Shown: positions 3,819 through 32,400 of the stretch, in pieces
Numbering within the stretch: the stretch's first letter is position 1
How the letters are laid out: each line of letters starts with the position of its first letter
Assembly: GCA_015523565.1 (NCBI GenBank)
Contig: WAKA01000029.1
Location: 1-35,178 of the forward strand
Source: Candidatus Heimdallarchaeota archaeon
Lineage (GTDB): Archaea > Asgardarchaeota > Heimdallarchaeia > Heimdallarchaeales > Kariarchaeaceae
Length of the DNA: 35,178 bases
Direction of reading: 5' to 3'
Program-made: the position numbers and the translations under genes
The notes under the pieces: generated by a model
The model's input: only the letters and a program-made list of their open reading frames with translations
The model's database searches: none
What the model was told of the DNA's origin: nothing

Positions 3819-4742
3819 TTATTGAGTCAGGACTTCACATCCATTTTCCTTGACAATGATTGTATGCTCAAACTGTGACACATTTGCATTTGGATTTCTT
3901 TCGACAAGCACAGGATAACCCATAATTATTCCAGCTCTAAGCAATTTTCTCAAATCCTTCATGATTGTCTCCTTGTCATTGTTTTCCTTGTCATAAAGGA
4001 AACGGGGTGAGAAGGGGAGTACGCCAACAGTCTTGAAATACTTGGCGAGGATTTTTGCATGTTCCACTTCTTTTTTCTTGGGTTTTCTGACAACCCTGAA
4101 AATATTTGTGCGTTTGCCATTGATTACTTCACCAACCCCATCGGTGGCGAATGGCTCTATTGCATACACCTTTCCTTTTTGTAATCTTCCTTTTATTAAT
4201 TCGAGAAATTTTGATCCATGATTCGGGATGGTTTGACCTGCGTGAAGGACATAACGTTTGATTTGGTGACCAGACAGGTTCCTGATGGGTTCATATCCCG
4301 CAGAAGTGATTGTTTTCTCGATGACTGCACCAACTTCCATTACTTTGACACCATCTTTCACAATTGAGAGAGCCGCTTCAAGAGCTTCGTTTGCCACTTT
4401 TACAAGTTCGTTGTATTGTGGATTGAAGTTTATTGTTATTGCGGTATCAACAATATATCCATCCACATGAGCACCTAAATCCACCTTGATGGTGTCATTC
4501 TTTCCGACAGTTCTAGAATCATTGATTTCAGGGGAATAATGAGCTGCTTCGTTGTTGATGGAAAAGTTCAGTGGAAAAGAGGGTTTTGCACCTTCTTTTC
4601 TGATAAATCCCTCTATTTCCTCTGCAATCTGAAATGCATTTTTTCCAGGCCTAATGGTTTTTTCAGCGATTCTTTTAGCTTCAATTGATATCCTTCCAGC
4701 TTCCCTATATTTTGAAAGAATTTCTTTTGCCTTACTTTCCAT
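3819..4742 (-). CDS. map: Methionine aminopeptidase type II
   Basis: AAHYSP, KVDLGAHVDGYIVDTA, NLSGHQI..YVLHAG, AIEPFAT, SQFEHT plus the type II helical insertion. Confidence 0.95.
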   Translation of the reverse strand: MESKAKEILSKYREAGRISIEAKRIAEKTIRPGKNAFQIAEEIEGFIRKEGAKPSFPLNFSINNEAAHYSPEINDSRTVGKNDTIKVDLGAHVDGYIVDTAITINFNPQYNELVKVANEALEAALSIVKDGVKVMEVGAVIEKTITSAGYEPIRNLSGHQIKRYVLHAGQTIPNHGSKFLELIKGRLQKGKVYAIEPFATDGVGEVINGKRTNIFRVVRKPKKKEVEHAKILAKYFKTVGVLPFSPRFLYDKENNDKETIMKDLRKLLRAGIIMGYPVLVERNPNANVSQFEHTIIVKENGCEVLTQ

Positions 4743-7909: not shown

Positions 7910-8629
7910 ATGTCACAATCGTTTAGCAAGGGTCATTCAGAATTGGTTCAAATTATAGACTATATAAATCAAACAATTCCATTGGTGACAACTGGTTCCA
8001 GAAAAGCAGATGTCAAACAAATGGTAATTACTGTATCAGAACAAATGAAATCAGAAGATTTAAACCAAATCTCACCACATTTTCGACCCTTGGGAACAAC
8101 ATTGAAAATATTAGTGGGCTCCGATTCTCCACTTTTAACGTCAGTTACGTTTCAAGGGTTTCTACTTGAAATGGCTGAGACATTGAGTGAAATCTCCGAA
8201 CTGATAAATTCAGGAGGAATTCCAGATCCGGCAATAATTCAAGACTTAAGAACAAACGGGGAATTCTTGATAAAGCTTGCAGGCAGAATGCTTTATAGGT
8301 ACAAGATTCAGGTCTACTTTGAACCTGATTATGATGCAAAGGTACTAAGGGCATTCATGCTTGCAAAAGACTTGTCAAAAGTTGTAAGATTTCTGAATGT
8401 CACCCCTGATATTTCACAGCAGACAAATCCCAACCTCGACAATGGCATTACATTGGAAGTATTATCTGCATCCAGTCCCCAAGAGTTAAATGATATCGTA
8501 ATGAATGTTCTTTCTGTCGAATCCTGTCAAATATTCATCGAAAGAAAAGAAAGCAATGTCATTTATCTTGATCCACCATATATTCCAGGGTCTGTAGATG
8601 ATAAGATGGAAAAATACCTTAACGAATGA
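7910..8629 (+). CDS. Hypothetical protein: helical N-terminus plus CheA P2-like (CheY-binding) domain
   Basis: Residues ~131-210 YKIQVYFEPDYDAKVLRAFMLAKDL...P...ITLEVLS....ELNDIVMNVLSVE match the pattern of Firmicute/archaeal CheA P2 domains (recognised from memory); no kinase or CheW domain. Confidence 0.55.
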   Translation: MSQSFSKGHSELVQIIDYINQTIPLVTTGSRKADVKQMVITVSEQMKSEDLNQISPHFRPLGTTLKILVGSDSPLLTSVTFQGFLLEMAETLSEISELINSGGIPDPAIIQDLRTNGEFLIKLAGRMLYRYKIQVYFEPDYDAKVLRAFMLAKDLSKVVRFLNVTPDISQQTNPNLDNGITLEVLSASSPQELNDIVMNVLSVESCQIFIERKESNVIYLDPPYIPGSVDDKMEKYLNE

Positions 8630-8712: not shown

Positions 8713-11700
8713 TTAGCTTTTGGATTTTTTTGATATCTTTCTTTTAAGAACAAAAGCAGAAGCGAACAGGGCAAGCACAAAGAACTGAGATATGGGTGAT
8801 GGGGATGAACTTGCCTCAGATGAAGTTACAGAAGAAGTTTCTGAAGTTGTTTCTGAAGTTGTTTGATTTGTAGGTTGTGATGAAGTAGGTGTACTAGTGA
8901 CTGGTTTTTCACCGATATAGAAGAGCAATGTCACTTTACCTTCATTACCTGCATCATCTTTTGCGATAAAGGTCAAGTTGTGTGTGACAATTGTAGGATC
9001 AACAGCATCCTTTTGCACAATCAATGTTACTTTCGTATCTTCAATAATTCTGGATACCTCTGATACGGGACGTTCAGTTCCATCCAAAATTACCGTAAGA
9101 TCGGAATAAGTGACCTTATAAGTTGAGTCAACCACTTCAAATTCGAACTTATAGACATACAAATCTTCTCCGAACACAGTTTCATTCTCTGTTAGGGGAG
9201 TAATTGTTGGTCCAAGAAGATTCAATGTCATTGTAAATCTAAGATAGTCATCGGCAGTTGTGACTTGAATATTGTGAACCCCATCCTCTGTAGCATTGTA
9301 TACCAATCTAAACCGACCGTTTCCAAGATCAGTCAATGGAATGTCTTGGGCAGGAATAGAGGTTTGCAACCTTCTTGCAGATACTTGTGTTGATGGACTT
9401 CCATTGTCATAGACTGAAAACTCGGCAACAAGTTGATCATCGGTAATATTCATGCTTTCAAGGGAAACACGATTGTTTTCCAAAAACCATTTATATGCAT
9501 TTTGAGCAAGGATACGATCGTATGGAGAATATCCTTGTGCCCCAGACGTTCCACCATTGTCTGTCCAGAAGTTGTTATCAGAAATTATTACCCTTCCACC
9601 ACCTATTTGGTCGTAAAGTGCAATTTGGGTCTTGTCCGCGGTTCCTGTTAGATAATACAAAGCCGCATTTTTGCTTTGGGCAACAGAATAATCCAGACTC
9701 AAAAAGTTGCCAAATGTAGTAACAGTTTTTGCAGACCCAACAAATGAGGTTACATTGTATATTGGTTTGATACGTTGATTAGGATCTGCTGTACTTGGAT
9801 CTGTGGAAGTTAAAGCACCAAATTTTCCAATAACCCTGTTAAGTTCAGTGGCATTGGTTCCGACAAGACCAGCATTGGTATCTGTAAACAAACCATTAAA
9901 GGTGAAAAGAAGATTACCTCCATTATCAACATAGTTTTCCAATGCGGTTATTTCACTATCCAAGAAATATTCTCCCTCATATGGAATATTAAAATCTGGA
10001 ATGCCAATTTCAACTGGGTCAGGAATCCATACAATATCATACCTTGATAAGAGGTCTGAAGTAATTTCCTCGTCAAATTCCTCAACCCAAACACCTTGAT
10101 CCATTGCCAGATCGATCATTCCGCCAGTATTTGTACCTCCAATTCGATCAGATCCAGAATCGTCCCAATCGGTATGGCGAAGGTCGAAGCCCATGATGGC
10201 ACGAGCAGGACCTGTAATTTCATAAGTAATTGAAATTTCAATCTTTTGATTATCTAACTGCACAATCAAGAAACCCGAATAAGAACCGACTGATGCACCA
10301 GTTGAATTCAGATATAAAGGAATTTCTTGAGAGTATGCATTGTTATCCCATGCAGTCTGATTAAAGAAGAGGATATCTGCCAATGATCCGTTGACAGAAA
10401 CAGAAACTTCAGCAGGATGGGAGGAGACAACCGTATATCCGTTAATTGGGGTGACAATGTCAGAAAGGTAGTTTGACCTGAATAGTCGATCATGGAGTGG
10501 AGTGACGGCAAGAGCCTTTGCAGTTCCATTTTGTGCAATGTTCATAAGATAGGTATATGAATTATAGATATTTACAAAACCCATCCCATAATCATAATTT
10601 CCACCGTCAGTTCCCTCTGCACCACGAAGTAAAGCAGCTTTTAGGGTTCCCATGTTCCATGTAATGTTGTTGGCATTAAGTGCGCTTGCCAAAGTAGCCA
10701 AAGCGCCTGAGGTGACAGGAGTTGAAAAGCTTGTCCCATCAACATAACCGAACAAATCACCAGGGTAGGTGGCGGTATAGACATTCTGTCCAGGTGCAAC
10801 CACATCAGGTTTCAGAATCTTTGAGACAGGGGTGGGACCCCTTGAACTGAAACTTGCAATATTTTTGTTATGATCTGTAGCGCCAACAGCAACAACATCA
10901 ATAAATCCACCAGGGAAACCCACAGTGCCTGGATTTGGACCTTCATTTCCAGCGGCAGCTACAACAAGAATACCTAAGTCTGTAAAAGCCTTGATAAGAG
11001 GACCGTTTGAAGGGAATGGTCCACCCAATGACAAGCTCAAAATGTCAATGGTCTGATTATATTCAAGCATTTTATTATATGCATTAAGTAAATCGTTTGG
11101 ATCAATTCCACCACTGCTTGTGGTTGGTAATGCAACAGAATAAATCGAAGCGTTCACAGCAGAACCGTATGCGTTAGGGTCTACGGAACCATCTGTGACG
11201 ATCATCCCTGCTACTGAAGTGCCATGATAGTAGAATTCGCCATTCAATGAGACAAAGACCTGTTCCTTAACTTTTCCTTTCAGGGCAGGGTGGTCAAGAT
11301 AAATACCATTATCGATTATACCAATATTAATTCCAGTTCCATTGTAACCCAAATCATAAAGTTGGGAGACACCCATCATCTGTATATCTTCAAGACCAGT
11401 TAAAGATTGTCCAGGATTTGAGATAGGATTTGGTTTTGGAATGGTGAGGGAATAATCACTCAATGGAAAAACAAAACCATTCCCATAAAGTGTTTTTGCC
11501 ACCTTTATTTGGTTAGAGTCAAGAGGAACAACAACAGCCTTCAAGTTGTCGTAAGATGCCTTTACATCAAATGAAGCCAAAAGGTCTTTATATTCCTCTT
11601 TTGATTGAGCAAAAATCACATAATCAGTTTTGACGGATTTAGACTGACTAGTTAACTTTGCATCCCCAACATTCAAAGGAACCTTTGTATTTGAGGATAC

Positions 11701-11781
11701 ATTGTTTGCGTTTATTGCCACAAGAGATGTAAACATCACTGTGAGCAAAAAGAGAGTGAACCATCTGTTATGATTCTTCAT
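8713..11781 (-). CDS. Secreted S8 subtilase with GATase-like/GIFT-like domain, Ig-like domains, Ser/Thr linker and C-terminal anchor
   Basis: Signal peptide; IIDNG, HGTSVAG, AAGNEG, SSRGP, KPDVVAPG, DGTSFSTP; YDIVWIPDP...YVDNGGNLL; C-term TTSETTSETSS linker, SP-hydrophobic helix, KRK tail. Confidence 0.9.
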   Translation of the reverse strand: MKNHNRWFTLFLLTVMFTSLVAINANNVSSNTKVPLNVGDAKLTSQSKSVKTDYVIFAQSKEEYKDLLASFDVKASYDNLKAVVVPLDSNQIKVAKTLYGNGFVFPLSDYSLTIPKPNPISNPGQSLTGLEDIQMMGVSQLYDLGYNGTGINIGIIDNGIYLDHPALKGKVKEQVFVSLNGEFYYHGTSVAGMIVTDGSVDPNAYGSAVNASIYSVALPTTSSGGIDPNDLLNAYNKMLEYNQTIDILSLSLGGPFPSNGPLIKAFTDLGILVVAAAGNEGPNPGTVGFPGGFIDVVAVGATDHNKNIASFSSRGPTPVSKILKPDVVAPGQNVYTATYPGDLFGYVDGTSFSTPVTSGALATLASALNANNITWNMGTLKAALLRGAEGTDGGNYDYGMGFVNIYNSYTYLMNIAQNGTAKALAVTPLHDRLFRSNYLSDIVTPINGYTVVSSHPAEVSVSVNGSLADILFFNQTAWDNNAYSQEIPLYLNSTGASVGSYSGFLIVQLDNQKIEISITYEITGPARAIMGFDLRHTDWDDSGSDRIGGTNTGGMIDLAMDQGVWVEEFDEEITSDLLSRYDIVWIPDPVEIGIPDFNIPYEGEYFLDSEITALENYVDNGGNLLFTFNGLFTDTNAGLVGTNATELNRVIGKFGALTSTDPSTADPNQRIKPIYNVTSFVGSAKTVTTFGNFLSLDYSVAQSKNAALYYLTGTADKTQIALYDQIGGGRVIISDNNFWTDNGGTSGAQGYSPYDRILAQNAYKWFLENNRVSLESMNITDDQLVAEFSVYDNGSPSTQVSARRLQTSIPAQDIPLTDLGNGRFRLVYNATEDGVHNIQVTTADDYLRFTMTLNLLGPTITPLTENETVFGEDLYVYKFEFEVVDSTYKVTYSDLTVILDGTERPVSEVSRIIEDTKVTLIVQKDAVDPTIVTHNLTFIAKDDAGNEGKVTLLFYIGEKPVTSTPTSSQPTNQTTSETTSETSSVTSSEASSSPSPISQFFVLALFASAFVLKRKISKKSKS
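8837..8864. repeat. 12-nt tandem repeat (GTTTCTGAAGTT x2.3) encoding the TTSE linker
   Basis: Read directly within the Ser/Thr-rich stalk of the subtilase. Confidence 0.7.
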
Positions 11782-19055: not shown

Positions 19056-22000
19056 CTACCAACGTGGCATTGCTCTGTATGAACTGATAAGTGTACCCAA
19101 TTCATCAACGAAAATCGGATCTTGGGTAACAATGCCATATGCATTCTTATTTTTGAGAGGAGTTGCAAAGAGGAATTCTTCTCCGTCTCTGCTGGCAATA
19201 ATCATATTCAAGGAAGATGCACCGAATCCTTTTGCCTGGAATTTTCGGAATTGAATATTATTGTCAGATGCCTTCATCTTCTCTATTACTTGAGTATCTC
19301 CTGCGGTGTGGGCAGTAGGATCTGTGACTATGGTGACAGAGGTTCTACGATATTCTTCCCAAAGTTTTGGATCTATCCAATCAACAGTTGGAGTGACAAT
19401 TGTCAAATTGCTTCTTGTTCTTGATATCAAAGCATTAAGATCGGCAATCAGTGCCTCTCTTGTTGCGTCTACATAAGTAGCCTCTACAGTTTTTGGCTCA
19501 AATGCTTGGGCACCTTCTGAAATTTGTCTTAATAGATTCATTGCCTTGCCTGCGGCATCCAATGTTTCAGAAATAACTGAAGGGATTTTTCCAATTGTAT
19601 CTGAAATTTCTTTTCTTCCTGCATTCACAGATTGTTCAAGTTCATTTGTCAAGGTTTGTCCAAACTTTGAAACTTGACCTTTGAGAGTTGTCATAGTTTG
19701 TTCTATTTGGTTATTGACTTCATCAACATGGGATTTGAATCTGTCATTCATGGATCCAAGATCCTTACTTAAACCATCATCAACAATTTTTTCATAGTTT
19801 GCGACGGATTGTCTCAATTGTTGTTCATAAGCAAGAAGATCCTGTGTATTTTTATCAATCAATTGTACTATTTGATCAGACACATCCTTTGATGCCTTTG
19901 AGATGTCATTTTTTGCTTGTGAAACTGCATTGAGGATCAGGTTCTCAACCGTTGCCTGCATATTTGATACGGCACCATTGATTTCCGTTTGAAGGTCATT
20001 TGTTTGCCCTAAAACGAATTGGGATACAGAATCAACGAAACCTACCAATTCATCGATTTGGGCATTGAGTGTGGAAATGAGATTGTCATAATAGGTTCCA
20101 TTGAAATTGGCAATTGAATTTTTGTATTCTTGAAGCCTATTTGCCATTGATTCATTCAATTGTGATTTCAGTGCTTCAATACTGTCCATGAATGACTTGA
20201 AATCATTCACCAATGCATTAGTGACCTCAATAATCTCTTTTGAGGTGGAAACAGCATCCTTGAAGATGCCTCCAACCTTCTTGGATTCAGCATCTGCAAT
20301 TTTCTTGGTATCCTTTTCAAAATTCTTGTCAAGCTTTTCTGCTTGTTTCTTAATATCAATTAATGGCTTTCCTACATCATTGTTCATTGATTTGGCAGAT
20401 GCGTCAATTGCTTTTTCCGCTTTGTCAAATGATTGGGAAAGGTTTGCCAAGGTCTTTTTCAGGTTTTCCTCTTGTGCACTTTTTGCTTGCTCTAAAGTAG
20501 AGGAAAGTGAAGTATTAGTCTCCTCCCTGATTTTTTCCAGTCCCTGATTGAATTCCTCAAATTTGTCTGCAATTTCCTTAAGCCGCGTGTCCGTATCTTG
20601 TTTGAGATTGGTTGTCTCAGTTTGAACACCTTCCTCAATTTCGCGGATTCGTTCGGAGATAATTTTTTCAAGATTTTCAGAGGTTGAATCAGAATGTTTT
20701 TTCAACTGTTCCTTGGTATTTGAGACAACATCAGCAAGGGCAGACCCCATAGTTTCAGAAAATTCATTCATGACAGAAAGTTGCTTTTCCAAGGTTTCCT
20801 TATAGTCTGAAAGGAATTGAGTCTTAATGTTGTTTGTATCTTCCAATGCGGTTGCAACGCTTGAATCCACTTGGGAGTGGGCATTAGTGAAATGAGTGTC
20901 CGCTGTTTCAACAAATTTGTGGAAGGCTTTATCCAATAGGGAAATCAAATTCTCCTGCGCTGCAAGGACGATGTTTTCTTGGGTGTTTGCATCTATACCT
21001 TTTGCAAGGAATTCAGCCTTCCCTATCAAAGACAAGAGAGGTTCACTGAATGTGTTGGCCAGCTCATTTTTCACTTTGTCTTCCATTTCATTTAAAAGTT
21101 CATTGCTTGAACTTGTTATTGAATTTAGAAATGTGGTATGGGATTTATGAACTTCTTGACCCAATTCATTCAATATTGAGCTTAACCTTTCGGTATGGTC
21201 GTTTACGAGCCCTTCTACTTTTTCGACTTCATCTTGAACAGTTTTGCTCAAGGAAGACAAGACTTCCTCTTGGGTGGTTTCTGTATCTTCAGTTGCATTG
21301 CGAAGCATTGTTGCCAGATTTTGGGATAGTTTTTCATAATCTGACATTAACTTCTTATGTTCTTCCAGCTTTTGAATCACAAAATCTTTCTTACCAAACA
21401 TACCCTTGGTATTTTGTTCCAATGCACTCTTCAAATCCAAGAGCATTTTCTGGGATTTAGCTTGATATACTTCGAATTCTCTTTTGAGATTTGATAGTTG
21501 GTCGTGATGGTCATTGAATATTCTTTCAATCTCTTGAGGGAGTTCTTCTCTAATAGTGACAATGTTCAGTTCAAAGTCAGACTTGAACTTATTCAATTCA
21601 TCCTTATTTTTTGAGGAGATTGAGTTCAGGTCATTGTCAAAGGTTTTTAGTCCTGTTTCAGTTTCTTCCTTGAATTTTTTCAAGCTTTCATTTTTTACAT
21701 TCCCTATTGTGGAACTGAAGCTGGAGATAAGTTTTTCACGTGATGCGTTTGCATCAATTTGAAGCTTTTCAGCTTCAGATTTGAAAAGATCCATCTGAGC
21801 TTTTTGTCGGGAAATAACATCTTCCCTTGCAGACTTCATTTCTTGAAAACCAGAATTGATTGCTGTTTCAAATGTATTCTTGGAATTAGAAAGGTCATTG
21901 GAAAGCCTATCCTTCATTTGATTGAGATACTGGGTAATTTTTGTGTGAAATTCGTTTAATTTGTTTTCTGCAACTGTTGCCGCATTTTCAGCTTTTTCTT

Positions 22001-23489
22001 TTGCATCATTGACAAATTCTTCTCTGTCTTGGGTTGCTTTGTCCTCAATTTCGTTCAAGGAATCTGTTACACCAGAATTTAAGGTGTTCATCGCCTCATT
22101 GATTTCACTTTTTGTTTCGTTCAGGAAATTTGTTATGAAATTTTGCAAGGAAGTTAATTCCTTAGTAATGTGTTCAACAGAATTGTTTGAGGCTTCTGTC
22201 AATTGATCTCTGAAGTTGTTGTTATTGGTTTGTACCTCATTGAATTTTTCTTTCAATGTGTCTTGTAATTGGGTATTGAGCTTTTCCAAATCCTTGTCAA
22301 GCTCATTCTTGTTTCCACGGAGGGATTTTTCGATATTTGAATTTGCAGACTTCAGTTCTGACTTTGTCTGGTTCAATATTTTTGACAGCCCTTCCACAGA
22401 TGTTTTTTGGGTTTCATCAATAGCCTTAACCAGTTCTGATTTTATGTTTTGAACATTTTTTGCCAATGATGAATGCAAGTTTGCAATGGCTGATTTTGTG
22501 ATTTCAACAGCTTGTTTTTCTGCATTCTTTGCCTTGTTGTCAATTTCCTTGGTTCCTTCGTTTAAGGATTTCACAGTATTTGAATGGCTTTCCTTGAGGG
22601 ATTCGTGAAATGAGTCAAAGTCTGTTTGTGTTTTTGTGACATAATCTGATGAAAATGTTTCAATTTCATTTGTTAACTGGTCTGATAATGTTTTTGAGTT
22701 ATTATGCAATGTTTGCCTCATTGTTTCCAAATTGGATTTGTTAGGTTCAGCCATACCCTCAATTGCTTGATCAACAACAGTGACCCTCGCATTGACAGTC
22801 ATTCCCAATTCAGTTGCATAATCGATAATTTCTGTTTTCATTTCGTCATTTGTCGTATCAAGCTTGGTTCTATGCGTTTCAATTAGTGTATCTATAGAAG
22901 TGACAGTATTGTTTTTAGTTTCTTGCAGTAACGAGCTTTCTTTGTTCAGATCGTCGGCAATATTTTGAATTGGAGGGATAACTGCCTGCTTTATGTTGCT
23001 AGCAAGATTTTCAGACAGTTTATTGATTGATTCACGTTCCTGATGTGCAAGCTTCAGGAATTTATCTTTTTCCTCTTGATTGATTTGGTCAAGAGACTGA
23101 TTGAAACTAGAAATGGAATTGTCCTTTTCATCTATAAATTTGGTCTTGAATTGGAGTATTTGCTTTTCGGAATCTGACCATATCTGATTTACCTTTTCTC
23201 CAATTTCTCCAAGCTTATTTGACAACCTAGAACTGACGTCCGCCCCCAAAGCAATTTTTGGTGCTTCAGGGATGTATATTTTTGCATTTTCTCCTTTGAC
23301 TGCCAATGACTTTACATATCCTTTGCTTTCCAAGTTGTTCAGGGAATTTTTTACATCCTCAATGGAAACGTCATCCAAGTATGCCGCGACTTGTCCTGCT
23401 GTTCTGAAACCAAATGCAACAAGAACCTCATAGGCTTTTGCATCCAGTTCAGAAAATCCAAGAGTAATTAGATCATCAGAAAGAGCCAT
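19056..23489 (-). CDS. Giant 1477-aa protein: TrmB-like wHTH, ~1250-aa hendecad helical rod, TrmB/PLD-like C-terminal domain
   Basis: N-term LGFSELDAKAYEVL..G..TAGQVA......V..SL..LESKGYV...YIPEAP; C-term LNALISRTRSNLTIVTP...VTIVTD...IIASRDGEEFLFA...GIVTQDPIFVDEL; middle is amphipathic helix with 3-4-4 hydrophobic spacing. Confidence 0.75.
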   Translation of the reverse strand: MALSDDLITLGFSELDAKAYEVLVAFGFRTAGQVAAYLDDVSIEDVKNSLNNLESKGYVKSLAVKGENAKIYIPEAPKIALGADVSSRLSNKLGEIGEKVNQIWSDSEKQILQFKTKFIDEKDNSISSFNQSLDQINQEEKDKFLKLAHQERESINKLSENLASNIKQAVIPPIQNIADDLNKESSLLQETKNNTVTSIDTLIETHRTKLDTTNDEMKTEIIDYATELGMTVNARVTVVDQAIEGMAEPNKSNLETMRQTLHNNSKTLSDQLTNEIETFSSDYVTKTQTDFDSFHESLKESHSNTVKSLNEGTKEIDNKAKNAEKQAVEITKSAIANLHSSLAKNVQNIKSELVKAIDETQKTSVEGLSKILNQTKSELKSANSNIEKSLRGNKNELDKDLEKLNTQLQDTLKEKFNEVQTNNNNFRDQLTEASNNSVEHITKELTSLQNFITNFLNETKSEINEAMNTLNSGVTDSLNEIEDKATQDREEFVNDAKEKAENAATVAENKLNEFHTKITQYLNQMKDRLSNDLSNSKNTFETAINSGFQEMKSAREDVISRQKAQMDLFKSEAEKLQIDANASREKLISSFSSTIGNVKNESLKKFKEETETGLKTFDNDLNSISSKNKDELNKFKSDFELNIVTIREELPQEIERIFNDHHDQLSNLKREFEVYQAKSQKMLLDLKSALEQNTKGMFGKKDFVIQKLEEHKKLMSDYEKLSQNLATMLRNATEDTETTQEEVLSSLSKTVQDEVEKVEGLVNDHTERLSSILNELGQEVHKSHTTFLNSITSSSNELLNEMEDKVKNELANTFSEPLLSLIGKAEFLAKGIDANTQENIVLAAQENLISLLDKAFHKFVETADTHFTNAHSQVDSSVATALEDTNNIKTQFLSDYKETLEKQLSVMNEFSETMGSALADVVSNTKEQLKKHSDSTSENLEKIISERIREIEEGVQTETTNLKQDTDTRLKEIADKFEEFNQGLEKIREETNTSLSSTLEQAKSAQEENLKKTLANLSQSFDKAEKAIDASAKSMNNDVGKPLIDIKKQAEKLDKNFEKDTKKIADAESKKVGGIFKDAVSTSKEIIEVTNALVNDFKSFMDSIEALKSQLNESMANRLQEYKNSIANFNGTYYDNLISTLNAQIDELVGFVDSVSQFVLGQTNDLQTEINGAVSNMQATVENLILNAVSQAKNDISKASKDVSDQIVQLIDKNTQDLLAYEQQLRQSVANYEKIVDDGLSKDLGSMNDRFKSHVDEVNNQIEQTMTTLKGQVSKFGQTLTNELEQSVNAGRKEISDTIGKIPSVISETLDAAGKAMNLLRQISEGAQAFEPKTVEATYVDATREALIADLNALISRTRSNLTIVTPTVDWIDPKLWEEYRRTSVTIVTDPTAHTAGDTQVIEKMKASDNNIQFRKFQAKGFGASSLNMIIASRDGEEFLFATPLKNKNAYGIVTQDPIFVDELGTLISSYRAMPRW

Positions 23490-23491
23490 TT

Positions 23492-24805
23492 TTATACCTC
23501 CTTTGTTTCTTTGATGATTTCAGTGACCATATTGTTCACTGATTTTTCGACTTCCTTGAAGTCGCCGTCCACTTCCTTCTTAGTCGATTCAACAGTGCCC
23601 TTCACTACTTCCTTGCTTTCTTCCATCATTTTTTTGATGTCATTGGTTCCTGCATTTAAAATGGCATTGTTGGCATCCAATGTTTCCTTGGAAAGAGCCA
23701 ACGTCATTTCATTGAATTTGTTTAATTCTTGCATTACCAATGTTCTATTTTCTTTTCCAAGTTTTTCAAGTTCCTGTCTCAATGTTGCGAAAGAATCAAT
23801 GATTTCCTTTCTTGCTTCCGAGATTTGTCCATCCATGAATTCAATTGATCCTTGAACCCTTTTTCGCTGTTCCTCATTCAAGCCAGCCAATTCATTCATA
23901 ATGCTTTCCTTTATTTTGTTCATTTCGCCCCTTATTTCTCCGATGGCATTTTGCGTTTTTTCTTTGTGTTTTTCAAGGAGAACAGTCATTTGCTTATTAT
24001 ATGCGTCCACAATTTCTGAAACAGTTTTTTCCATTTGTTCTTCAAATGCAAGAATGGTGTTTTGCAATTCTCCGACTTCTTGGGTAAAGTGTGCATCAAT
24101 TTCATTATGAAGTCGGTGGAGATTGGACTTTAGGTGGCTTAGGGTATCTGTTATTATACTATCCAAGACTTCCTTTGTTTGAACCACACCTTTGTAAACG
24201 TCCTCAACTTTTGTTCCAATTTGGTTTTGAAAATCATTTTTCAGGGATTCAAGAGATTCATTCAATGTTTCCCCATTAATTTCAAGAATTTGCTTAAGTT
24301 CCGTATTGACAGTGGCATCTCGTTCGGCAACAAGGTCAACAGTTTTATTGATGGTTTCTGTTCCAAGTTCATTGATTCTTTGATCATAGTTTCCAACATA
24401 TTCCAAATGGGAATTGACACTGTCCTTGATATTTGAGAGGCTAGTGTCAAGTTGTAAGGCAATTTTTTGCTCGGCATCATCCAATGTTTGTTTTCCATAT
24501 TCTTCCATGTTGGAGATATTCGAGCTCATATCCTCATTCAGACCAGTAGTGGTGTTCTGCAATTCATTTGTGAAGGTTTCCATGCTTTCAGAGACTTTCT
24601 TTGATGTCTCCTCCTTCAATTGGTTCACTCTTTTAGCAGCATTAGTTAGCTGATCATCAGTTTTTCTTTCGATATTTTCCAATGAATCAACGATTCTCTT
24701 TTTTGCAGTTCCTATTTTTGCGTGGACACTGTCCTTAGTTTTGGTAACTGTCGAATTAATAGACTTTAGTTTTTCAATGTATTTGGAATTACTGTCTTCG
24801 CTCAT
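23492..24805 (-). CDS. All-helical apolipoprotein-like (hendecad coiled-coil) protein
   Basis: 437 aa, E/K/T/N-rich, no Pro/Trp/Cys seen, 11-residue hydrophobic periodicity; SD-like GAGGGA at 24816-24811. Confidence 0.75.
   Translation of the reverse strand: MSEDSNSKYIEKLKSINSTVTKTKDSVHAKIGTAKKRIVDSLENIERKTDDQLTNAAKRVNQLKEETSKKVSESMETFTNELQNTTTGLNEDMSSNISNMEEYGKQTLDDAEQKIALQLDTSLSNIKDSVNSHLEYVGNYDQRINELGTETINKTVDLVAERDATVNTELKQILEINGETLNESLESLKNDFQNQIGTKVEDVYKGVVQTKEVLDSIITDTLSHLKSNLHRLHNEIDAHFTQEVGELQNTILAFEEQMEKTVSEIVDAYNKQMTVLLEKHKEKTQNAIGEIRGEMNKIKESIMNELAGLNEEQRKRVQGSIEFMDGQISEARKEIIDSFATLRQELEKLGKENRTLVMQELNKFNEMTLALSKETLDANNAILNAGTNDIKKMMEESKEVVKGTVESTKKEVDGDFKEVEKSVNNMVTEIIKETKEV
23496..23502 (-). 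promoter_or_regulatory. Shine-Dalgarno AGGAGGT for the 1477-aa gene
   Basis: Minus strand AGGAGGT-ATAAAA-ATG, inside the 3' end of the upstream gene (translational coupling). Confidence 0.75.
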
Positions 24806-24815
24806 TTGAATCCCT

Positions 24816-26492
24816 CTATGTAGCTATCTTCTTCTTGAAATACTTTTGATGCTGTGGATATTTAACAAAGGTGGTCACAGCCTGTTCTAATACTTCCTTA
24901 GCAGTATTTTTTTCACCAGCCTGCTGGAATGACTCATAGGCGCGGACAAACAATGATCGAACGGCATAATGAAAGATTTCCAAGTTGATATTTCCTATCT
25001 CTCTCCTGAATCTTCTGCCTGCTTCCCTATAGTTAGCTTTTGCTCTCCATTGGATATTGGCCTTTTCAAAATAGATTGCAGATTGTTCATAGGCCATAGC
25101 TGAAAAATACTCTAATTTTTCGATTGCAAATCCTTTTGCCAATCTTTCATATAAATCACCTAACCTTTCATAGTCCCCAGTCTTAAGCAAACCTTCAGAT
25201 GCGATGTCAAGAAGTTCCAATGTCAAATCCTTCAATCCATTGGTTAATGCAACTTCAGCGGTTTTAGCCAATTCTGTTGAGAGCCGGAAGATCAGTAAAG
25301 GGTCCTTTACTCTTTTGACATTCACCCTGATTATTTCCACGTCCTCCTTATGGGGCAGGAGACCAGATTGTGCGAGTCTTTCAATTCTATTGAGCAAGAG
25401 AAGAACTTCGGTTCTTGGATCAATTGGCAAGAAAATGGATGAGACCAATTCCCATATGGACCTAGTGATAAATGCGTAATAATTTCCACTCCTTGTCAAC
25501 ATAAAACCCTGTATCAGTTCATCCAAAGTTTCCTCATCATGGTTTTTCAGAATTTCATTTCTTTCGAAAAGATTTATGTCCCGTTTTGATAGATCCTCAA
25601 GGAGTGAAACTTCTTTTTCAGTCAATCCAAATGCTTTTGCGACTGTTTCCGCGTCTAGTTTGGTTTGATCCACACCTTGTGAAGCAAGAAACTGCCTTAA
25701 TGCAAGATCAAATGGCAACCTTGTTGAAGCACTTAGGACTTTTTCCCTTTCATTCTTAATTAATTTTCCCCGTCTTCGTATCATGAGGTCAGCGTCTTTG
25801 AAATCAAAGTTGGAAACCTCAAGATGCAAGACATTGGATGTCTCCTCCATTCGTTTAATGTCAAGATGTTGATTAACAGAATTGTGGGAAGAAGTAATAA
25901 AGACAATATTCATCATTCGTTTGTTTGTTTCCAGAAAAATATTTTTCAGGATTTCAAATACAGACAGAAAATTGTAATTCATAGCCCTGTCAAGATCGTC
26001 AACAAAAACACCGATGTATTTTCGATCATCCTTGAGCTTTGCATCAGCCCTGTCCAATCGATAGAAAAACGTTTTAAGAAATTCATTCAAGGTTACTGAA
26101 TCGATAGTTTCTGCACTTATTCGATCGAAAAGGGATTGGGGAACCTCCCCAATAGTCACCCCGCGTTTTCTTTCAATGAAGTTCCTCCATTCAGGCGAAA
26201 GATTATTGATTTGTTCTTTGATGTCATTAAAGAAGTTTGGCAGACCATCTTCTGAAATTGGCATCTCTATACTAAACGGAATTACTTCTTGTGATAAGGC
26301 AATATCCTTGAGCTTATTGAGTAATGATGTTTTTCCAGATCCAGCAACTCCAGAGATGTGTATCCATCTCATGATTTTTTGATCACTGACCAGTTCCTTA
26401 ATCCACTGGTAAAATGCATCAATCTGTTCAGATCTTCCAACAAAGTCTATTGGATTTACAGGGTTTATTATTTCTTCCAGAGAAGTCTCCAT
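24816..26492 (-). CDS. STAND/AAA_16-like P-loop ATPase with C-terminal TPR/SNAP-like repeats
   Basis: FVGRSEQI, Walker A GVAGSGKT, Walker B VFVDDLD, VFITSS sensor, degenerate GxP (STRLPF); C-term GDYERLGDLYERLA..AMAYEQSAIYF..ANYREAG. Confidence 0.8.
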   Translation of the reverse strand: METSLEEIINPVNPIDFVGRSEQIDAFYQWIKELVSDQKIMRWIHISGVAGSGKTSLLNKLKDIALSQEVIPFSIEMPISEDGLPNFFNDIKEQINNLSPEWRNFIERKRGVTIGEVPQSLFDRISAETIDSVTLNEFLKTFFYRLDRADAKLKDDRKYIGVFVDDLDRAMNYNFLSVFEILKNIFLETNKRMMNIVFITSSHNSVNQHLDIKRMEETSNVLHLEVSNFDFKDADLMIRRRGKLIKNEREKVLSASTRLPFDLALRQFLASQGVDQTKLDAETVAKAFGLTEKEVSLLEDLSKRDINLFERNEILKNHDEETLDELIQGFMLTRSGNYYAFITRSIWELVSSIFLPIDPRTEVLLLLNRIERLAQSGLLPHKEDVEIIRVNVKRVKDPLLIFRLSTELAKTAEVALTNGLKDLTLELLDIASEGLLKTGDYERLGDLYERLAKGFAIEKLEYFSAMAYEQSAIYFEKANIQWRAKANYREAGRRFRREIGNINLEIFHYAVRSLFVRAYESFQQAGEKNTAKEVLEQAVTTFVKYPQHQKYFKKKIAT

Positions 26493-26643: not shown

Positions 26644-28824
26644 TCAGATTGCTATGCTTAAGTTATCCCTTACTCCTGCAAGAGGATAATTGGGGTCTAT
26701 TGCAAGGATTGCTGTTTCTGCAATTTTCACCAATTCAGGATTGGGATTGCTTTCAAGTACATTGACCATCCATGAAAGATCTTCTGGCTTGCCTTTTTTG
26801 CCAAGCGCCCAATATGCGGCTTTTTTCACCTCGATATCGGGATTTTTCAGGGCTTCAAGCAATAGCCAACGGGAGTCAGATGTTCCAACCAACCCAAGAC
26901 CCAATAATATTCCAATTAATTTACCACGAGAAATATCTTCCTCCTTGCTCATTTCCAAAAGCTTATCCTCGTTTAGAAGTTCTATCTTACTGGCAAGCAA
27001 AATCACTCCAGAAACCACTTTTTCATGAGGGTGGTCAAATAGACCCTCATACACTTTTTCAAAATCAGTGGAATCAAATTTCTCAACCCACCGGAATGTT
27101 GCGGATCGACCATATTGTCCCAATCCATAAGAAAACTCATTTTCCGCCTTTTCGACAGTTGTTGGCCAGATGGTCAAAAGCAATGGCAGAAAGAATGGGA
27201 AAAATGACCAATGAAATGTTATCGTTGAGGCAGAGGTTGTCCAAATATAGATGTTCATGAAAAGGAGGAAAAAGAAGAAGAAATTAAGCCATTTCCTCCA
27301 GCTTTTCGAGAAGAAATACCCAAGTTTCATTGATCTGGCCCAATAAAATGAAACCATCATAAAAACAAGAAGAGGTATTAAAACCATAAAGATTACATAT
27401 TTGATTTGGTCACTGAAAGACAATCGGTCAAGCTGTCTGTAAGCCGCGGTAATAAAAAGAAGGTACAAATAAAGAAATCCAAAAATTGATGCCAACCTAA
27501 TTCCATTGAAATACCACGGTTCATTTGATTCAAGCATTTCAATGTCTTCTTGAACATCAATTGGATAAAATTCATTCAGATTCTTGACATCCTCAGTGAA
27601 TTTGCCTGCCATTATGAACATTGTTTCCTGGGTTGGTGAAGGAAGTAACATGTAGACAAATGGGAGTACAAATCTGAGAACAATAATAGATACAATGAAA
27701 CCAACTACCAATAAAAGTGGATTTACCGAATTACTCATGAACACTGAGAAAACAATGTCAATCACAAAAAATGCAAATATGACAATTATAAGCCCTTTTT
27801 TCTGGAACTTGAAATCTCGGATGATTGTTTTTAGAACTGGTATTGTTTCTCGATATCCTAGAAGCACAGAAGGTAGTGCCAATAAAATCAAAGAAACTCT
27901 AAGAAACAAGAACAAGGTTTTAACCTGTGAAACGAAATCAGAGCCGAATTGTATAAATTGAATATTGTCCTGAATTATAGAAAGGATGTCAAGAGCCACC
28001 CTTTGAAATACAGAATTTGAGGAAAGAAGGTTCATGACAACAGAAAAGAGCGAAGAACCCCAGAAATTCCGTGTTCTCCACCAGATGATACCAGAGACCA
28101 ATCCCCAAATGAACATCCGTAAGAATACAAAAACATATACATCCCAATCATAGAAAAGTAAGAAGAAGTTGGAAAAAGCAGTTGCTTGAATTATGGCACC
28201 AACCAATATTGCAGTTCCCATGCCCAACTTTGAGACACGTGCAAAGTTTGCAATCAAACCCCTCAGGAGATATTCAATACCAATATAAGTACCAATGAAG
28301 CTTAGAAAAAGAAGAATCTTTTCACGATCCGCCTTGTCGTCAGGACTTATGATATTGTAAATGTTTGCTTGGTAAAAATCAGGGGACGTGGTAATGGATT
28401 GACTTTTGAAAATTACATCCTGCCCTCTTGTTGCAATTATGGTTGTGGAAAGAATGAATTCAAGAAGAAAATAGGTACCAAGAGCCATGATTACATAAAA
28501 AAGAGTTGCCTTCACATTTTTTTTGCGGAGAGGTGGAGAGAGACCAATACCCATTTTTTTTAATTCATATTCAGAACTGACAATTATTAAAATTGGAATA
28601 AGGATTGACATGGAAAGGTATGTATTGACATAAAATTGAATCTGATCAGTTGGCTCCAAAAATAAATTTCCATATTTACCAGTCAAGGCACCGACCATTT
28701 GGTTACCAAAAAGTAACCCAATTGCCAATGACCCAATATATGCAGGAAAATAAACCCCATAAAATAAGTTGAGAAATTTAGGACCAATTGCCTGGTCTAT
28801 TACATATTGGTTTGATTTAGACAT
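26644..28824 (-). CDS. Polytopic membrane protein: degenerate CPBP/Abi-like domain, further TMs, C-terminal HEAT (PBS-lyase-like) repeats
   Basis: IEYLLRG and GIIWWRTRNFWGSSLFSVVMN resemble CPBP motifs; LLEALKNPDIEVKKAAYWALGKKG is a HEAT repeat; start moved to ATG 28824 (SD GAGGAGG at 28840-28834, 1 nt after the upstream stop). Confidence 0.65.
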   Translation of the reverse strand: MSKSNQYVIDQAIGPKFLNLFYGVYFPAYIGSLAIGLLFGNQMVGALTGKYGNLFLEPTDQIQFYVNTYLSMSILIPILIIVSSEYELKKMGIGLSPPLRKKNVKATLFYVIMALGTYFLLEFILSTTIIATRGQDVIFKSQSITTSPDFYQANIYNIISPDDKADREKILLFLSFIGTYIGIEYLLRGLIANFARVSKLGMGTAILVGAIIQATAFSNFFLLFYDWDVYVFVFLRMFIWGLVSGIIWWRTRNFWGSSLFSVVMNLLSSNSVFQRVALDILSIIQDNIQFIQFGSDFVSQVKTLFLFLRVSLILLALPSVLLGYRETIPVLKTIIRDFKFQKKGLIIVIFAFFVIDIVFSVFMSNSVNPLLLVVGFIVSIIVLRFVLPFVYMLLPSPTQETMFIMAGKFTEDVKNLNEFYPIDVQEDIEMLESNEPWYFNGIRLASIFGFLYLYLLFITAAYRQLDRLSFSDQIKYVIFMVLIPLLVFMMVSFYWARSMKLGYFFSKSWRKWLNFFFFFLLFMNIYIWTTSASTITFHWSFFPFFLPLLLTIWPTTVEKAENEFSYGLGQYGRSATFRWVEKFDSTDFEKVYEGLFDHPHEKVVSGVILLASKIELLNEDKLLEMSKEEDISRGKLIGILLGLGLVGTSDSRWLLLEALKNPDIEVKKAAYWALGKKGKPEDLSWMVNVLESNPNPELVKIAETAILAIDPNYPLAGVRDNLSIAI

Positions 28825-28825
28825 T

Positions 28826-30652
28826 TCAGGGTTCCTCCTCAATTGTGAGAATTGCATCAACACGTGATCTCTTCAATTTTCTCATGGAGATGAATTTTTG
28901 GTATGCTGTTTTCATGACATAAACTGTTGTCAGTATTAAAAATAACCAGAAAGAGCCCCGTAATCTGATATTTTTGATCACATGAATTTCAAGGGAAACG
29001 GAATTGTCATCCTCATTGATTTCAGTAACTTCGTTATTCAAATCAATTGTAGCTGACAGTGACATGTTTTTTGTATCGTATTTCAGGAATGTCCGATATG
29101 TATAAACAAGTGATGTATTGATTTGCAAAAAGGAAATCTCATCCTCAATAATTGGTTCTCCGTCAAGGTTCACTTGCAGTTTGAAATTTCCAGCAGGCAA
29201 AGACCCGTTTGAAATGAATGTGACCTTAATCAATAATGACGAGAATTCTTCTGCTGGTTCTGGAAATATCTCAATGGATGAAACTGCAAGGTTTGTGAAC
29301 CGATACCATGTTGCAAAAATTCCAGTTACATTCTTATAGAGGGTTTGCTGATTCAACGGAAGTAGCACAAAAGCAGTGCTTGGCGCCATGAAATGACCAA
29401 TCCTGCCAGGAGAAACTGCGATTCCATAAAGACTGTCATTTGCGACAACAATATTTGGACTATCTTTTCCAGGAAGTGAAACAGATGCAACTTCATCAAA
29501 TTTCCAAGCTTCCCTATTTGCAAGTACATAACCACTACTTGAGTAATCCGCAACTGTCAAGTTGGTATTGGGTTGCAAAACTGCAAATGATGCAGAAAAG
29601 TTGGAGGGGATGGTGAACAATTCACCTGCACGCATTTCAGGGGCTTCAATAAGTTGAACAAATGAAGAACGAATAAGTCCCACATATTGAATTTTTATGT
29701 TGATTGAAACGTCGATATCGGCCCTTATGGATGTGAGGGATTTGATTCCAGATGAAAGAGCCAATTGTGTAAATCCAAATATTGACAAGATTTGTGTAGA
29801 ATTGTTTTCATACTCTATTTTCACTTCAGTTGGAGATTCAGGCAGAATTTCAATTGTGGAAAAATCTAATTGGTCTTTTGATAAATCATACAAGTGATTT
29901 GGAATAACATATCTATTTCCGCGCAAGAATTTTGGGACACCCATTGTTGCAACGTACCCTGTTGATTCATTTGGGGAATAAAATGTAACCGTTGTTGGTT
30001 CAGAAGTGTTGATATACGTACCTCGAGTGACAGGGTATATTTGTGTGCTAAATGGTCGGAAAATCTGTTCTTTCTTAAATGTATCATTTGGAAATGCAAA
30101 ATTAACTGTTGTCAATGAATCTTCCGTAAAGACCACCGCATATCCGTCAAACGGAGACTTGTATTCAAATCCTCTCATTCTATCTGGGAGGACTGTATAA
30201 CCAAATGATTTGTCTGCAAAATCGTCTTGGCTTGATCTATGAACGAAAACTTGTGCAGGAGATGTAAGCCTAATAAGAGATCCATTGGTTAAACCCCGAC
30301 TAGTGGAGGGGTTAAAAGTTATTGTTGTAGGTTGGTTAAAGACTCTTTGATTAACACCAGATTCATCCATTTGAAAGCTTGTTATCATTAATGAGGGTTG
30401 GATAATTGTCACAGTAACTGATGCAAGACCGTCCTTATGCGTTTCATCAAAAATTAAGGGGATATAATAATCAAAAAATAAGAATCCCCCACCACCGCCG
30501 CCACTGCCTCCATTTGGATCGCTACCTGGTGGGGCAGGATCACCTTCTGATGATGATGCATTTGGAAAAAATGAAATTGGAGACAATAATATGGTCAAAA
30601 CAATAATTCCAGCAAAGACAAGGCGTAACTCCAACCATTTCATGTGTAGCAA
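28826..30652 (-). CDS. Surface protein: signal peptide, Gly-rich linker, beta-rich (IgGFc-binding-like) region, CARDB domain, C-terminal TM
   Basis: GGSGGGGGG; repeated LP...G..Y-type segments; NLAVSSIEIFPEP..N.G...A..F...IDLNNEVTEINEDDN (CARDB); TM FWLFLILTTVYVM. Confidence 0.65.
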   Translation of the reverse strand: MLHMKWLELRLVFAGIIVLTILLSPISFFPNASSSEGDPAPPGSDPNGGSGGGGGGFLFFDYYIPLIFDETHKDGLASVTVTIIQPSLMITSFQMDESGVNQRVFNQPTTITFNPSTSRGLTNGSLIRLTSPAQVFVHRSSQDDFADKSFGYTVLPDRMRGFEYKSPFDGYAVVFTEDSLTTVNFAFPNDTFKKEQIFRPFSTQIYPVTRGTYINTSEPTTVTFYSPNESTGYVATMGVPKFLRGNRYVIPNHLYDLSKDQLDFSTIEILPESPTEVKIEYENNSTQILSIFGFTQLALSSGIKSLTSIRADIDVSINIKIQYVGLIRSSFVQLIEAPEMRAGELFTIPSNFSASFAVLQPNTNLTVADYSSSGYVLANREAWKFDEVASVSLPGKDSPNIVVANDSLYGIAVSPGRIGHFMAPSTAFVLLPLNQQTLYKNVTGIFATWYRFTNLAVSSIEIFPEPAEEFSSLLIKVTFISNGSLPAGNFKLQVNLDGEPIIEDEISFLQINTSLVYTYRTFLKYDTKNMSLSATIDLNNEVTEINEDDNSVSLEIHVIKNIRLRGSFWLFLILTTVYVMKTAYQKFISMRKLKRSRVDAILTIEEEP

Positions 30653-31911: not shown

Positions 31912-32400
31912 ATGTTTGTATCCATGAAAAGTTTGGAGGCAATTGACTGGAATAACTTGAGTTGGAATGAAGCCCAGCGAATTGTTGTTGAGTTTCTCCA
32001 TTCCCATGGGTATATGAGCTTTCATGAAAGTCAAAATAAAGAAGGAAGGGCGGATGGGTATGCAATCAGAAAAACGGAAAAGGAAATCATCAAGGTAATT
32101 GTTGAAGTCAAACATTACAAAAAAATTACAGACATCACCGTAAAAAGAGCAATTGCACAAGGGCTCAAATATATGGATACCGTCATTTCAAAGGACAACA
32201 AAAGCAGGAAAAGGTTAGTTAAGCCAATTAGGTATGTAGTGGTTGTTGTGTTCACAAAAGATTATCCAGTCAAGAACATAAAACCCATAGAAACCAGAGA
32301 AAAAGTTGAGGTCATTTACTGTTCTGGAAAATCTCTAGAGAAAAAATTGAAGGAATACAAGTTGATTGACAACCAAAAACGATTAGACGAATTCTTTTAA
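31912..32400 (+). CDS. Stand-alone PD-(D/E)xK restriction-endonuclease-like protein (Mrr-like)
   Basis: LSWNEAQRIVVEFLHSHGY helix, GRADGYA, VIVEVKHY, AIAQGLKY. Confidence 0.65.
   Translation: MFVSMKSLEAIDWNNLSWNEAQRIVVEFLHSHGYMSFHESQNKEGRADGYAIRKTEKEIIKVIVEVKHYKKITDITVKRAIAQGLKYMDTVISKDNKSRKRLVKPIRYVVVVVFTKDYPVKNIKPIETREKVEVIYCSGKSLEKKLKEYKLIDNQKRLDEFF

Follow-up and report, generated by a model that had tools for sequence, protein, structure and literature searches.

In SMC and Rad50 proteins, a long antiparallel arm built of heptads unites two terminal domains, which are the half-heads of an ABC ATPase, and its special apex is a hinge or a zinc hook. STAND NTPases usually have a sensor-I arginine and a second acidic residue in Walker B, and they usually, but not universally, carry an effector domain at one end. 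PH0952 (6MFV) and MalT (8BOB) are STAND transcription regulators, in which a nucleotide-binding domain (NBD), a helical domain (HD), a winged-helix domain (WHD), an arm and TPR repeats follow one another. TrmB (3QPH, 2F5T) and TrmBL2 (5BPI, 5BQT, 5BOX, 5BPD) share a winged helix, a pairing helix and a PLD-like tail; TrmB proteins are regulators, and TrmBL2 is a chromatin protein of the Thermococcales (PMC4158304). Here we describe a locus on contig WAKA01000029.1 of Candidatus Heimdallarchaeota archaeon, in which three co-oriented open reading frames (ORFs) on the minus strand encode a STAND protein (gene A), a hendecad rod (gene B) and a giant TrmBL2-derived protein (gene C). The window is the whole stretch that was analysed, 35,178 nucleotides (nt) in length. 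An original prediction, made from the letters of this window, held that the trio forms a discrete operon unlike any characterised system. In line with this, no description of the operon or of the giant-TrmB family was found in the literature searched, most subscription journals being outside its reach. Each part of the trio belongs to a known family, the composition appears to be new, and the function given here is a proposal: we tentatively favour the idea that the trio is a vertically inherited structural machine of Asgard archaea, acting as a nucleotide-gated tether or spacer.

Conservation of the three-gene locus

The gaps between the genes are 10 nt (A-B) and 2 nt (B-C), and those on the outer sides are 151 and 125 nt, which agrees with the original prediction. 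The genes flanking the trio on both sides are likewise on the minus strand, and therefore the layout does not give the ends of the transcript. That the operon is a discrete unit is supported by comparative synteny: the trio is conserved while its flanks change. In a gene-neighbourhood check across Asgard, A, B and C were adjacent and co-oriented in 20/20 loci fetched from the order, with varying flanking genes, and the same order was found in 11 further loci from other Asgard families.

Gene A matched 40/41 relatives with one full copy each, and A, B and C are each single-copy in the host genome by tblastn. Among 251 Asgard genomes, 66 scored for A, 61 for B and 55 for C orthologues, while 52 scored for the complete trio and 184 for no gene of it; these counts are a description and not a test, since the profiles were partly built from the same genomes and kin are not independent. 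Every B-positive genome also has A, and most exceptions to the full trio are due to contig edges. Named carriers include Ca. Heimdallarchaeum aukensis, Borrarchaeum, Helarchaeota, Hermodarchaeota, Hodarchaeota and Jordarchaeales, and the named homologues of A at about 40% identity belong to Kariarchaeaceae/Heimdallarchaeota, which makes a Kariarchaeaceae-like host most probable. No full-length A turned up in the sample's two largest families, which comprise 65 and 61 genomes and are taken to be Thor- and Loki-like, nor in Ca. Harpocratesius, nor in a complete genome of 1.4 Mb. Within a library of 1.84 billion proteins, the full-length A family has about 28 representatives, and every named one that was checked is from Asgard. 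The 201-251 Thermoproteota genomes searched yielded no full-length A and no giant TrmB; their five weak matches were ordinary TrmBs.

This distribution bears on a role in antiviral defence of the Avs or Zorya kind, in which the STAND protein would sense a viral protein and the rods would execute or transmit the response. Avs3 and AVAST5 are among the STAND fold matches of A, and models of the ZorA tail, which is also a long helical rod of similar period and composition, match B and C (PADLOC, E 4e-22). However, the module is single-copy and nearly universal in the order, its neighbours are housekeeping genes and the tree of C groups by host family. No Avs model matched, and no nuclease, TIR, SIR2 or membrane effector was seen; the fused killing effector and patchy distribution of Avs/AVAST systems are both lacking in the operon of A. 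For Zorya, the score of 48 is far from the curated cut-off of 190, and there is neither a membrane motor domain nor a ZorB-like neighbour. The defence role listed in the original prediction is thus highly improbable.

Architecture of gene C

The N-terminal winged helix of C matched PF01978 (31.5 bits against a cut-off of 25.6) and 3QPH (E 2e-11). The C-terminal PLD-like domain, which had been missed in the original prediction, was modelled with a predicted local distance difference test (pLDDT) score of 83.6, and its top six Foldseek matches, including the preceding helix, were all TrmBL2 (E 8e-9). A PDB sequence search with this tail gave nothing below E 0.09; the tail was placed by fold search alone. 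Since the head is of TrmB type and the tail was matched to TrmBL2 together with the helix in front of it, C is, judged from its sequence and model, a TrmBL2 with about 1,240 residues inserted into the pairing helix. The RDxE motif of the tail is invariant, and no HKD catalytic motif was seen in the alignment. C ends straight after the PLD-like domain, so that the sugar-binding barrel of TrmB, including its second subdomain with G320/E326, is lacking. C further differs from TrmBL2 and TrmB in the loss of Tyr50 and in its linkage to a STAND protein and a second rod.

The insert of C has a period of 3.667 residues and keeps one phase from about residue 81 to 650, which then jumps at the KGMFGKKD loop. 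The hydrophobic period was 3.65-3.68 in 20/20 homologues of C and 29/29 homologues of B tested; the lag-11 signal against shuffles was z = 15 for C and z = 8 for B, and lag-28 was negative. The hendecad rods of the original prediction are therefore real features of B and C. In three independent shortenings of C, the residues lost from the two arms were 124/131, 106/114 and about 334/301. Because matched lengths were lost from both arms in three lineages, this supports antiparallel pairing of the arms around the central Gly/Lys loop. One arm of 622 residues corresponds to about 92 nm. The original prediction regarded C as a hairpin-type rod, which agrees with these deletions; a hairpin and a domain-swapped dimer would fit the arm data equally well. 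TrmB itself has been described as domain-swapped (PMC4158304).

C resembles SMC and Rad50 in its arm plan with a special apex, and its length is comparable or greater. In contrast, its arm is based on hendecads and not on heptads, its ends are a winged helix-turn-helix and a PLD-like domain, and the ATPase is a separate STAND protein. Neither split ABC ATPase heads nor a hinge was found in C, and its short Gly/Lys central loop has no CxxC.

In 13/31 dereplicated giants the middle of the insert ranks in the top decile for basic character (p = 4e-6), and in 10/31 it is rich in Gly/Pro (p = 6e-4). An LFGK-like motif, a pattern chosen after inspection, is frequent there and resembles membrane-targeting tips.

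The original prediction also compared the rods with apolipoproteins and perilipins, whose 11-mers have a period of 3.67 residues. The helices of B and C would then open and bind membranes or lipid droplets as a coat or carrier. The Pfam Apolipoprotein model PF01442 indeed matched C above its cut-off (119 vs 90 bits), and the hydrophobic face of the helices is about 120 degrees wide, with an acidic face across from it. The same stretch of C, however, also matched the ZorA and SpiroCoCo models, so these matches together reflect period and composition, and B was below the Apolipoprotein cut-off. Lys/Arg made up 15-18% at the interface and 16% on the polar face, without the interfacial enrichment of class A helices, and proline was 0.2-0.5%, without punctuation of 22-mers. 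The matched deletions moreover point to helix-helix pairing of the arms. The analogy is weak, and a lipid-surface function is improbable.

DNA link of the C head

The recognition-helix tyrosine Tyr50 is reported to be important for DNA binding in TrmB, TrmBL1 and TrmBL2 (PMC4158304). Neither Tyr50 nor any other aromatic residue was found at this site in 62 giant TrmBs, whereas K/R-x-Y was present there in each of the host's own short TrmB-like proteins (5/5). The adjoining basic residue was replaced by Asp/Glu in 31/62 giants, the recognition helix is often acidic, and the net charge of the C head is about neutral. Other residues persist: T30, preceded by a basic residue, does not vary among operonic C proteins, its position holds T/S in 60/62 giants, and K/R56 is kept in 46/62. 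Since these residues persist and MreA, a TrmB-family regulator, likewise lacks the tyrosine (PMC4158304), weak or different DNA binding is possible. The original prediction held that the winged helix links the rod to DNA. The TrmB-type winged helix is there, but DNA anchoring by it seems doubtful because of the missing tyrosine, and less likely than was assumed.

This weakens the principal idea of the original prediction, a chromosome tether or organiser. In such a scheme, the heads of C would bind DNA non-specifically like TrmBL2, the arms would hold the nucleoid, or bridge it, at a constant spacing from the membrane or from another locus, and A-B would be the release switch. Both ends of C are TrmBL2/TrmB domains, T30, K/R56 and the basic residue before T30 are largely kept, TrmBL2 is a chromatin protein, and TrmBL2 is reported to be a roadblock for archaeal Smc-ScpAB (PMC11840125). 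In one genus, 5/5 genomes (L132, L144-L147) have an 800-residue giant-TrmB paralogue placed between scpA and scpB; it is, however, a different paralogue, on the opposite strand and in this genus only. Canonical Smc was not found in the 90%-complete host genome, which has only the Rad50-like C117 and a DndD-like gene, but several lineages carry the operon together with canonical Smc. Given also the neutral head and the often acidic recognition helix, we consider a chromosome tether rather unlikely.

The idea that the operon replaces Smc was rejected, since the two coexist in several families. SMC_hinge was matched in 0/8 family members and weakly in 4/26 of family f2; this model also scores divergent true Smc weakly, so that absence is not shown by these counts. 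The SMC label of a gene of 1201 amino acids in genome L142 was withdrawn, because the corresponding gene in L148 gave no match to the Smc query. Two genomes of another family, f12, have a second, divergent Smc-like gene of about 1120-1130 amino acids, placed a few kb downstream of C (L059:2-2467, opposite strand; G055:C47).

The STAND protein A

The predicted model of A had a pLDDT of 91.6, and its top structural matches were PH0952 and MalT, which bears out the STAND ATPase with TPR of the original prediction. A shares with both proteins the domain order NBD-HD-WHD-arm-TPR, Walker A and a GxP-equivalent motif. It differs from them in a shorter TPR region, the lack of a sensor-I arginine and an identity of only 13-14%, and no conserved WHD histidine was seen in the alignment of A. 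Conservation of the arm/TPR region (0.40-0.43) is as strong as that of the NBD (0.41).

In 35 aligned members, G51 and G53 of Walker A are invariant and K54 is kept in 32. The first Walker B aspartate, D165, is invariant, and P260 of the GxP-like motif is kept in 29. Position 166, the second Walker B acid, is D in 15, N in 12, E in 1 and another residue in 7, so that D/E amounts to 16/35; position 168 is D/E in 31/35 and might replace it. There is no arginine among the common residues at 201-204, where sensor I is expected. None of the 35 members has an effector domain: the NBD begins at about residue 17 and the TPR reaches the C-terminal end. A thus has the NBD-HD-WHD core, arm and repeat sensor of STAND proteins with Walker A, the first Walker B aspartate and GxP, and lacks the sensor-I arginine, a constant second Walker B acid and the effector. 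Since A lacks an effector domain but keeps these motifs, it is likely to bind nucleotide and to exert its effect in trans, on a partner. ATP hydrolysis by A may be slow.

Action in trans would also suit a split signalling regulator, in which A senses a ligand via its TPR like MalT and PH0952, B relays the signal and C is the transcription-factor output. The best structural matches of A are both STAND transcription regulators, TrmB proteins are regulators (PMC4158304), and PH0952 carries its own N-terminal ArsR-like effector/DNA-binding domain, which A lacks. On the other hand, C has neither the recognition residues nor the sugar-binding barrel, and a 1,240-residue arm kept in register throughout the phylum is hard to explain for a promoter binder. 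The flanking genes share no function across loci. We therefore regard a split regulator as unlikely.

The rod protein B

B is an unbroken hendecad helix without a central break and would be about 65 nm long if straight. Its conserved central core is a candidate two-fold centre or partner site. In longer orthologues, extra sequence is added on both sides of this centre, and such two-sided gain of length would fit an antiparallel dimer. A complex predicted for A and a pair of B chains (residues 130-310) scored 0.04 (mark, 0.32), and an atlas search with B gave weak leads only.

The giant-TrmB family

The original prediction did not notice that C is one paralogue of a pan-Asgard, multi-paralogue family of giant TrmBs. 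The C-tail profile matched 221/251 Asgard genomes, mostly with several copies each. Complete genomes have one to five proteins of 715-1538 amino acids with the head-hendecad-tail plan, and the family is also present in a Lokiarchaeia genome and in the 1.4-Mb complete genome. The host genome has two further paralogues (C9:27615-29645 and C122:3-1841). In a head-plus-tail tree, from which the Helarchaeota C protein was left out, the operon-linked C proteins formed one group (support 92/97, below the starred threshold), and the branches within it follow host families. From the wide occurrence of the tail profile and the single operon-linked group, it follows that the rod architecture predates the operon and is more widespread, and that A-B has probably been added to one giant-TrmB paralogue as a control module.

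A 676-residue paralogue of the host genome lies 6 nt upstream of an L10e-like gene, which is followed by an S7-like ribosomal gene. A headless form of 539 residues (L137:5121-6740), composed of a hendecad helix and a TrmBL2-type tail without the winged helix, was seen in a complete genome.

Proposed function

In the tether or spacer that we favour, C would be arm and hub, B the adaptor rod and A the clamp. The folds, helical period, arm symmetry and gene linkage are computed, and we infer the contacts, the target and the switching. C would pair in antiparallel fashion: it would either fold into a hairpin of 92 nm whose head and tail meet at the base, or form a domain-swapped dimer that has its hinge at the break. 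The head and tail of C would mainly be an oligomerisation hub, like the domains of TrmBL2, with at most weak, non-specific DNA contact, and its basic/hydrophobic tip may dock on a membrane or a partner. B would form an antiparallel dimer, gripped by the TPR of A. The B-C connection would then be locked or released when A exchanges nucleotide and self-associates in the manner of STAND proteins, thereby setting or removing a fixed intracellular distance.

Several points weigh against this proposal. All partnerships were deduced from the order and co-occurrence of the genes. In seven loci, C is separated from A-B; five of these, all from one same-class family, keep A-B with C elsewhere. One contig has the order C-A-B. 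One Helarchaeota genome has A-C and no B, and the trio is thus dispensable as a set. A STAND neighbour is lacking for most giant-TrmB paralogues, and many paralogues lack the central break, while the tip motif was defined on sequences already viewed. Without the sensor-I arginine and often without the second Walker B acid, A may not switch like a textbook STAND protein. The lengths of B and C do not co-vary, which speaks against a length-matched B-C co-polymer.

The architecture of Asgard cells is poorly understood, and structural genes that are conserved in Asgard and specific to it are candidates for a part in it. The module is single-copy, occurs in nearly every genome searched in the order, extends to several Asgard classes and was absent from the genomes searched in the sister phylum. 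From its parts follow testable predictions, namely rods of 92 and 65 nm, a nucleotide switch and a basic tip. A broader notion, for which we see little likelihood at present, is that giant TrmBs are Asgard-wide tethers of 40-120 nm derived from a chromatin protein, positioning the nucleoid or inner structures relative to the membrane, one member having become STAND-switched via an adaptor rod in the Heimdall, Jord and Sif lineages. If this broader notion were true, the archaeal relatives of eukaryotes would have a machine for cell architecture of a new kind, and an NLR-type switch would serve a structural purpose outside immunity.

Features of the locus and neighbouring genes

The features of the trio are listed in Table 1.

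Table 1. Coordinates of the A-B-C locus and its parts in the window.
Feature	Position	Strand	Basis or remark
Gene A, STAND-fold NTPase with TPR, 558 amino acids	24816..26492	-	ORF, predicted model, structure matches
A nucleotide-binding domain, residues ~1-228	25809..26492	-	Alignment
A helical domain and winged helix, residues ~229-355, with GxP-equivalent (R/G)xPF motif	25428..25808	-	Alignment, model
A arm and TPR/SNAP-like helical repeats, residues ~356-558	24816..25427	-	Domain matches, model, alignment
GAGGGA, Shine-Dalgarno-like motif for gene B	24811..24816	-	Overlaps stop codon of A
Gene B, hendecad helix, proline-free, 437 amino acids	23492..24805	-	ORF, periodicity
B conserved central core, residues ~155-275	23981..24343	-	Almost gap-free alignment across Asgard
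AGGAGGT, Shine-Dalgarno motif for gene C	23496..23502	-	Within last codons of B
Gene C, giant TrmBL2-derived protein, 1477 amino acids	19056..23489	-	ORF, domain and structure matches
C TrmB-type winged helix, residues 1-80	23250..23489	-	Domain and structure matches
C outgoing hendecad arm, residues ~81-694	21408..23249	-	Single phase over ~570 residues
C central break KGMFGKKD, residues 695-702	21384..21407	-	Fraction 0.498 of insert; helical phase jump
C returning hendecad arm, residues ~703-1324	19518..21383	-	Periodicity, matched deletions
C C-terminal PLD-like domain, TrmBL2 type	19056..19517	-	Foldseek

The Shine-Dalgarno motifs that the original prediction placed before genes B and C were both located, but they differ in weight. 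The best anti-Shine-Dalgarno match of gene B is 4 nt only, which is common in the genome, whereas a 7-nt match as before gene C occurs in 64/1468 ATG genes of the same genome. A scan of the locus for promoters and terminators, of bacterial type while the host is archaeal, found nothing. By a codon-bias proxy, A, B and C stand at the 77th, 85th and 90th percentile; it is based on six reference genes only and was not used. Transmembrane segments were found in none of the three proteins.

Upstream of A, a CARDB-domain protein and a CPBP-like/HEAT membrane protein are encoded (window 26644-30652, minus strand). A five-gene core including these two was rejected: the CPBP/HEAT gene is upstream in 8 loci (the related families f1, f3 and f4), in 0/9 loci of f2 and in no distant loci. 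A map-like M24 peptidase gene (window 3819-4742) is a recurrent neighbour of the operon, on either side, in many f1 and f2 genomes. Window 4783-7764 and window 8713-11781 (minus strand) each encode a subtilase of about 1000 amino acids, of which the first has a weak match, below the cut-off, to the fourth domain of MBTPS1, the eukaryotic site-1 protease (E 2e-5). A rhomboid gene, the MBTPS1-matching subtilase and map directly adjoin A-B-C in three related genomes (L032, L033 and L037). On the plus strand, window 7910-8629 encodes a 239-residue protein with a CheA P2 response-regulator-binding domain (E 4e-10), near which no chemotaxis genes were recognised, and window 31912-32400 encodes a small protein with an Mrr-like PD-(D/E)xK nuclease domain.

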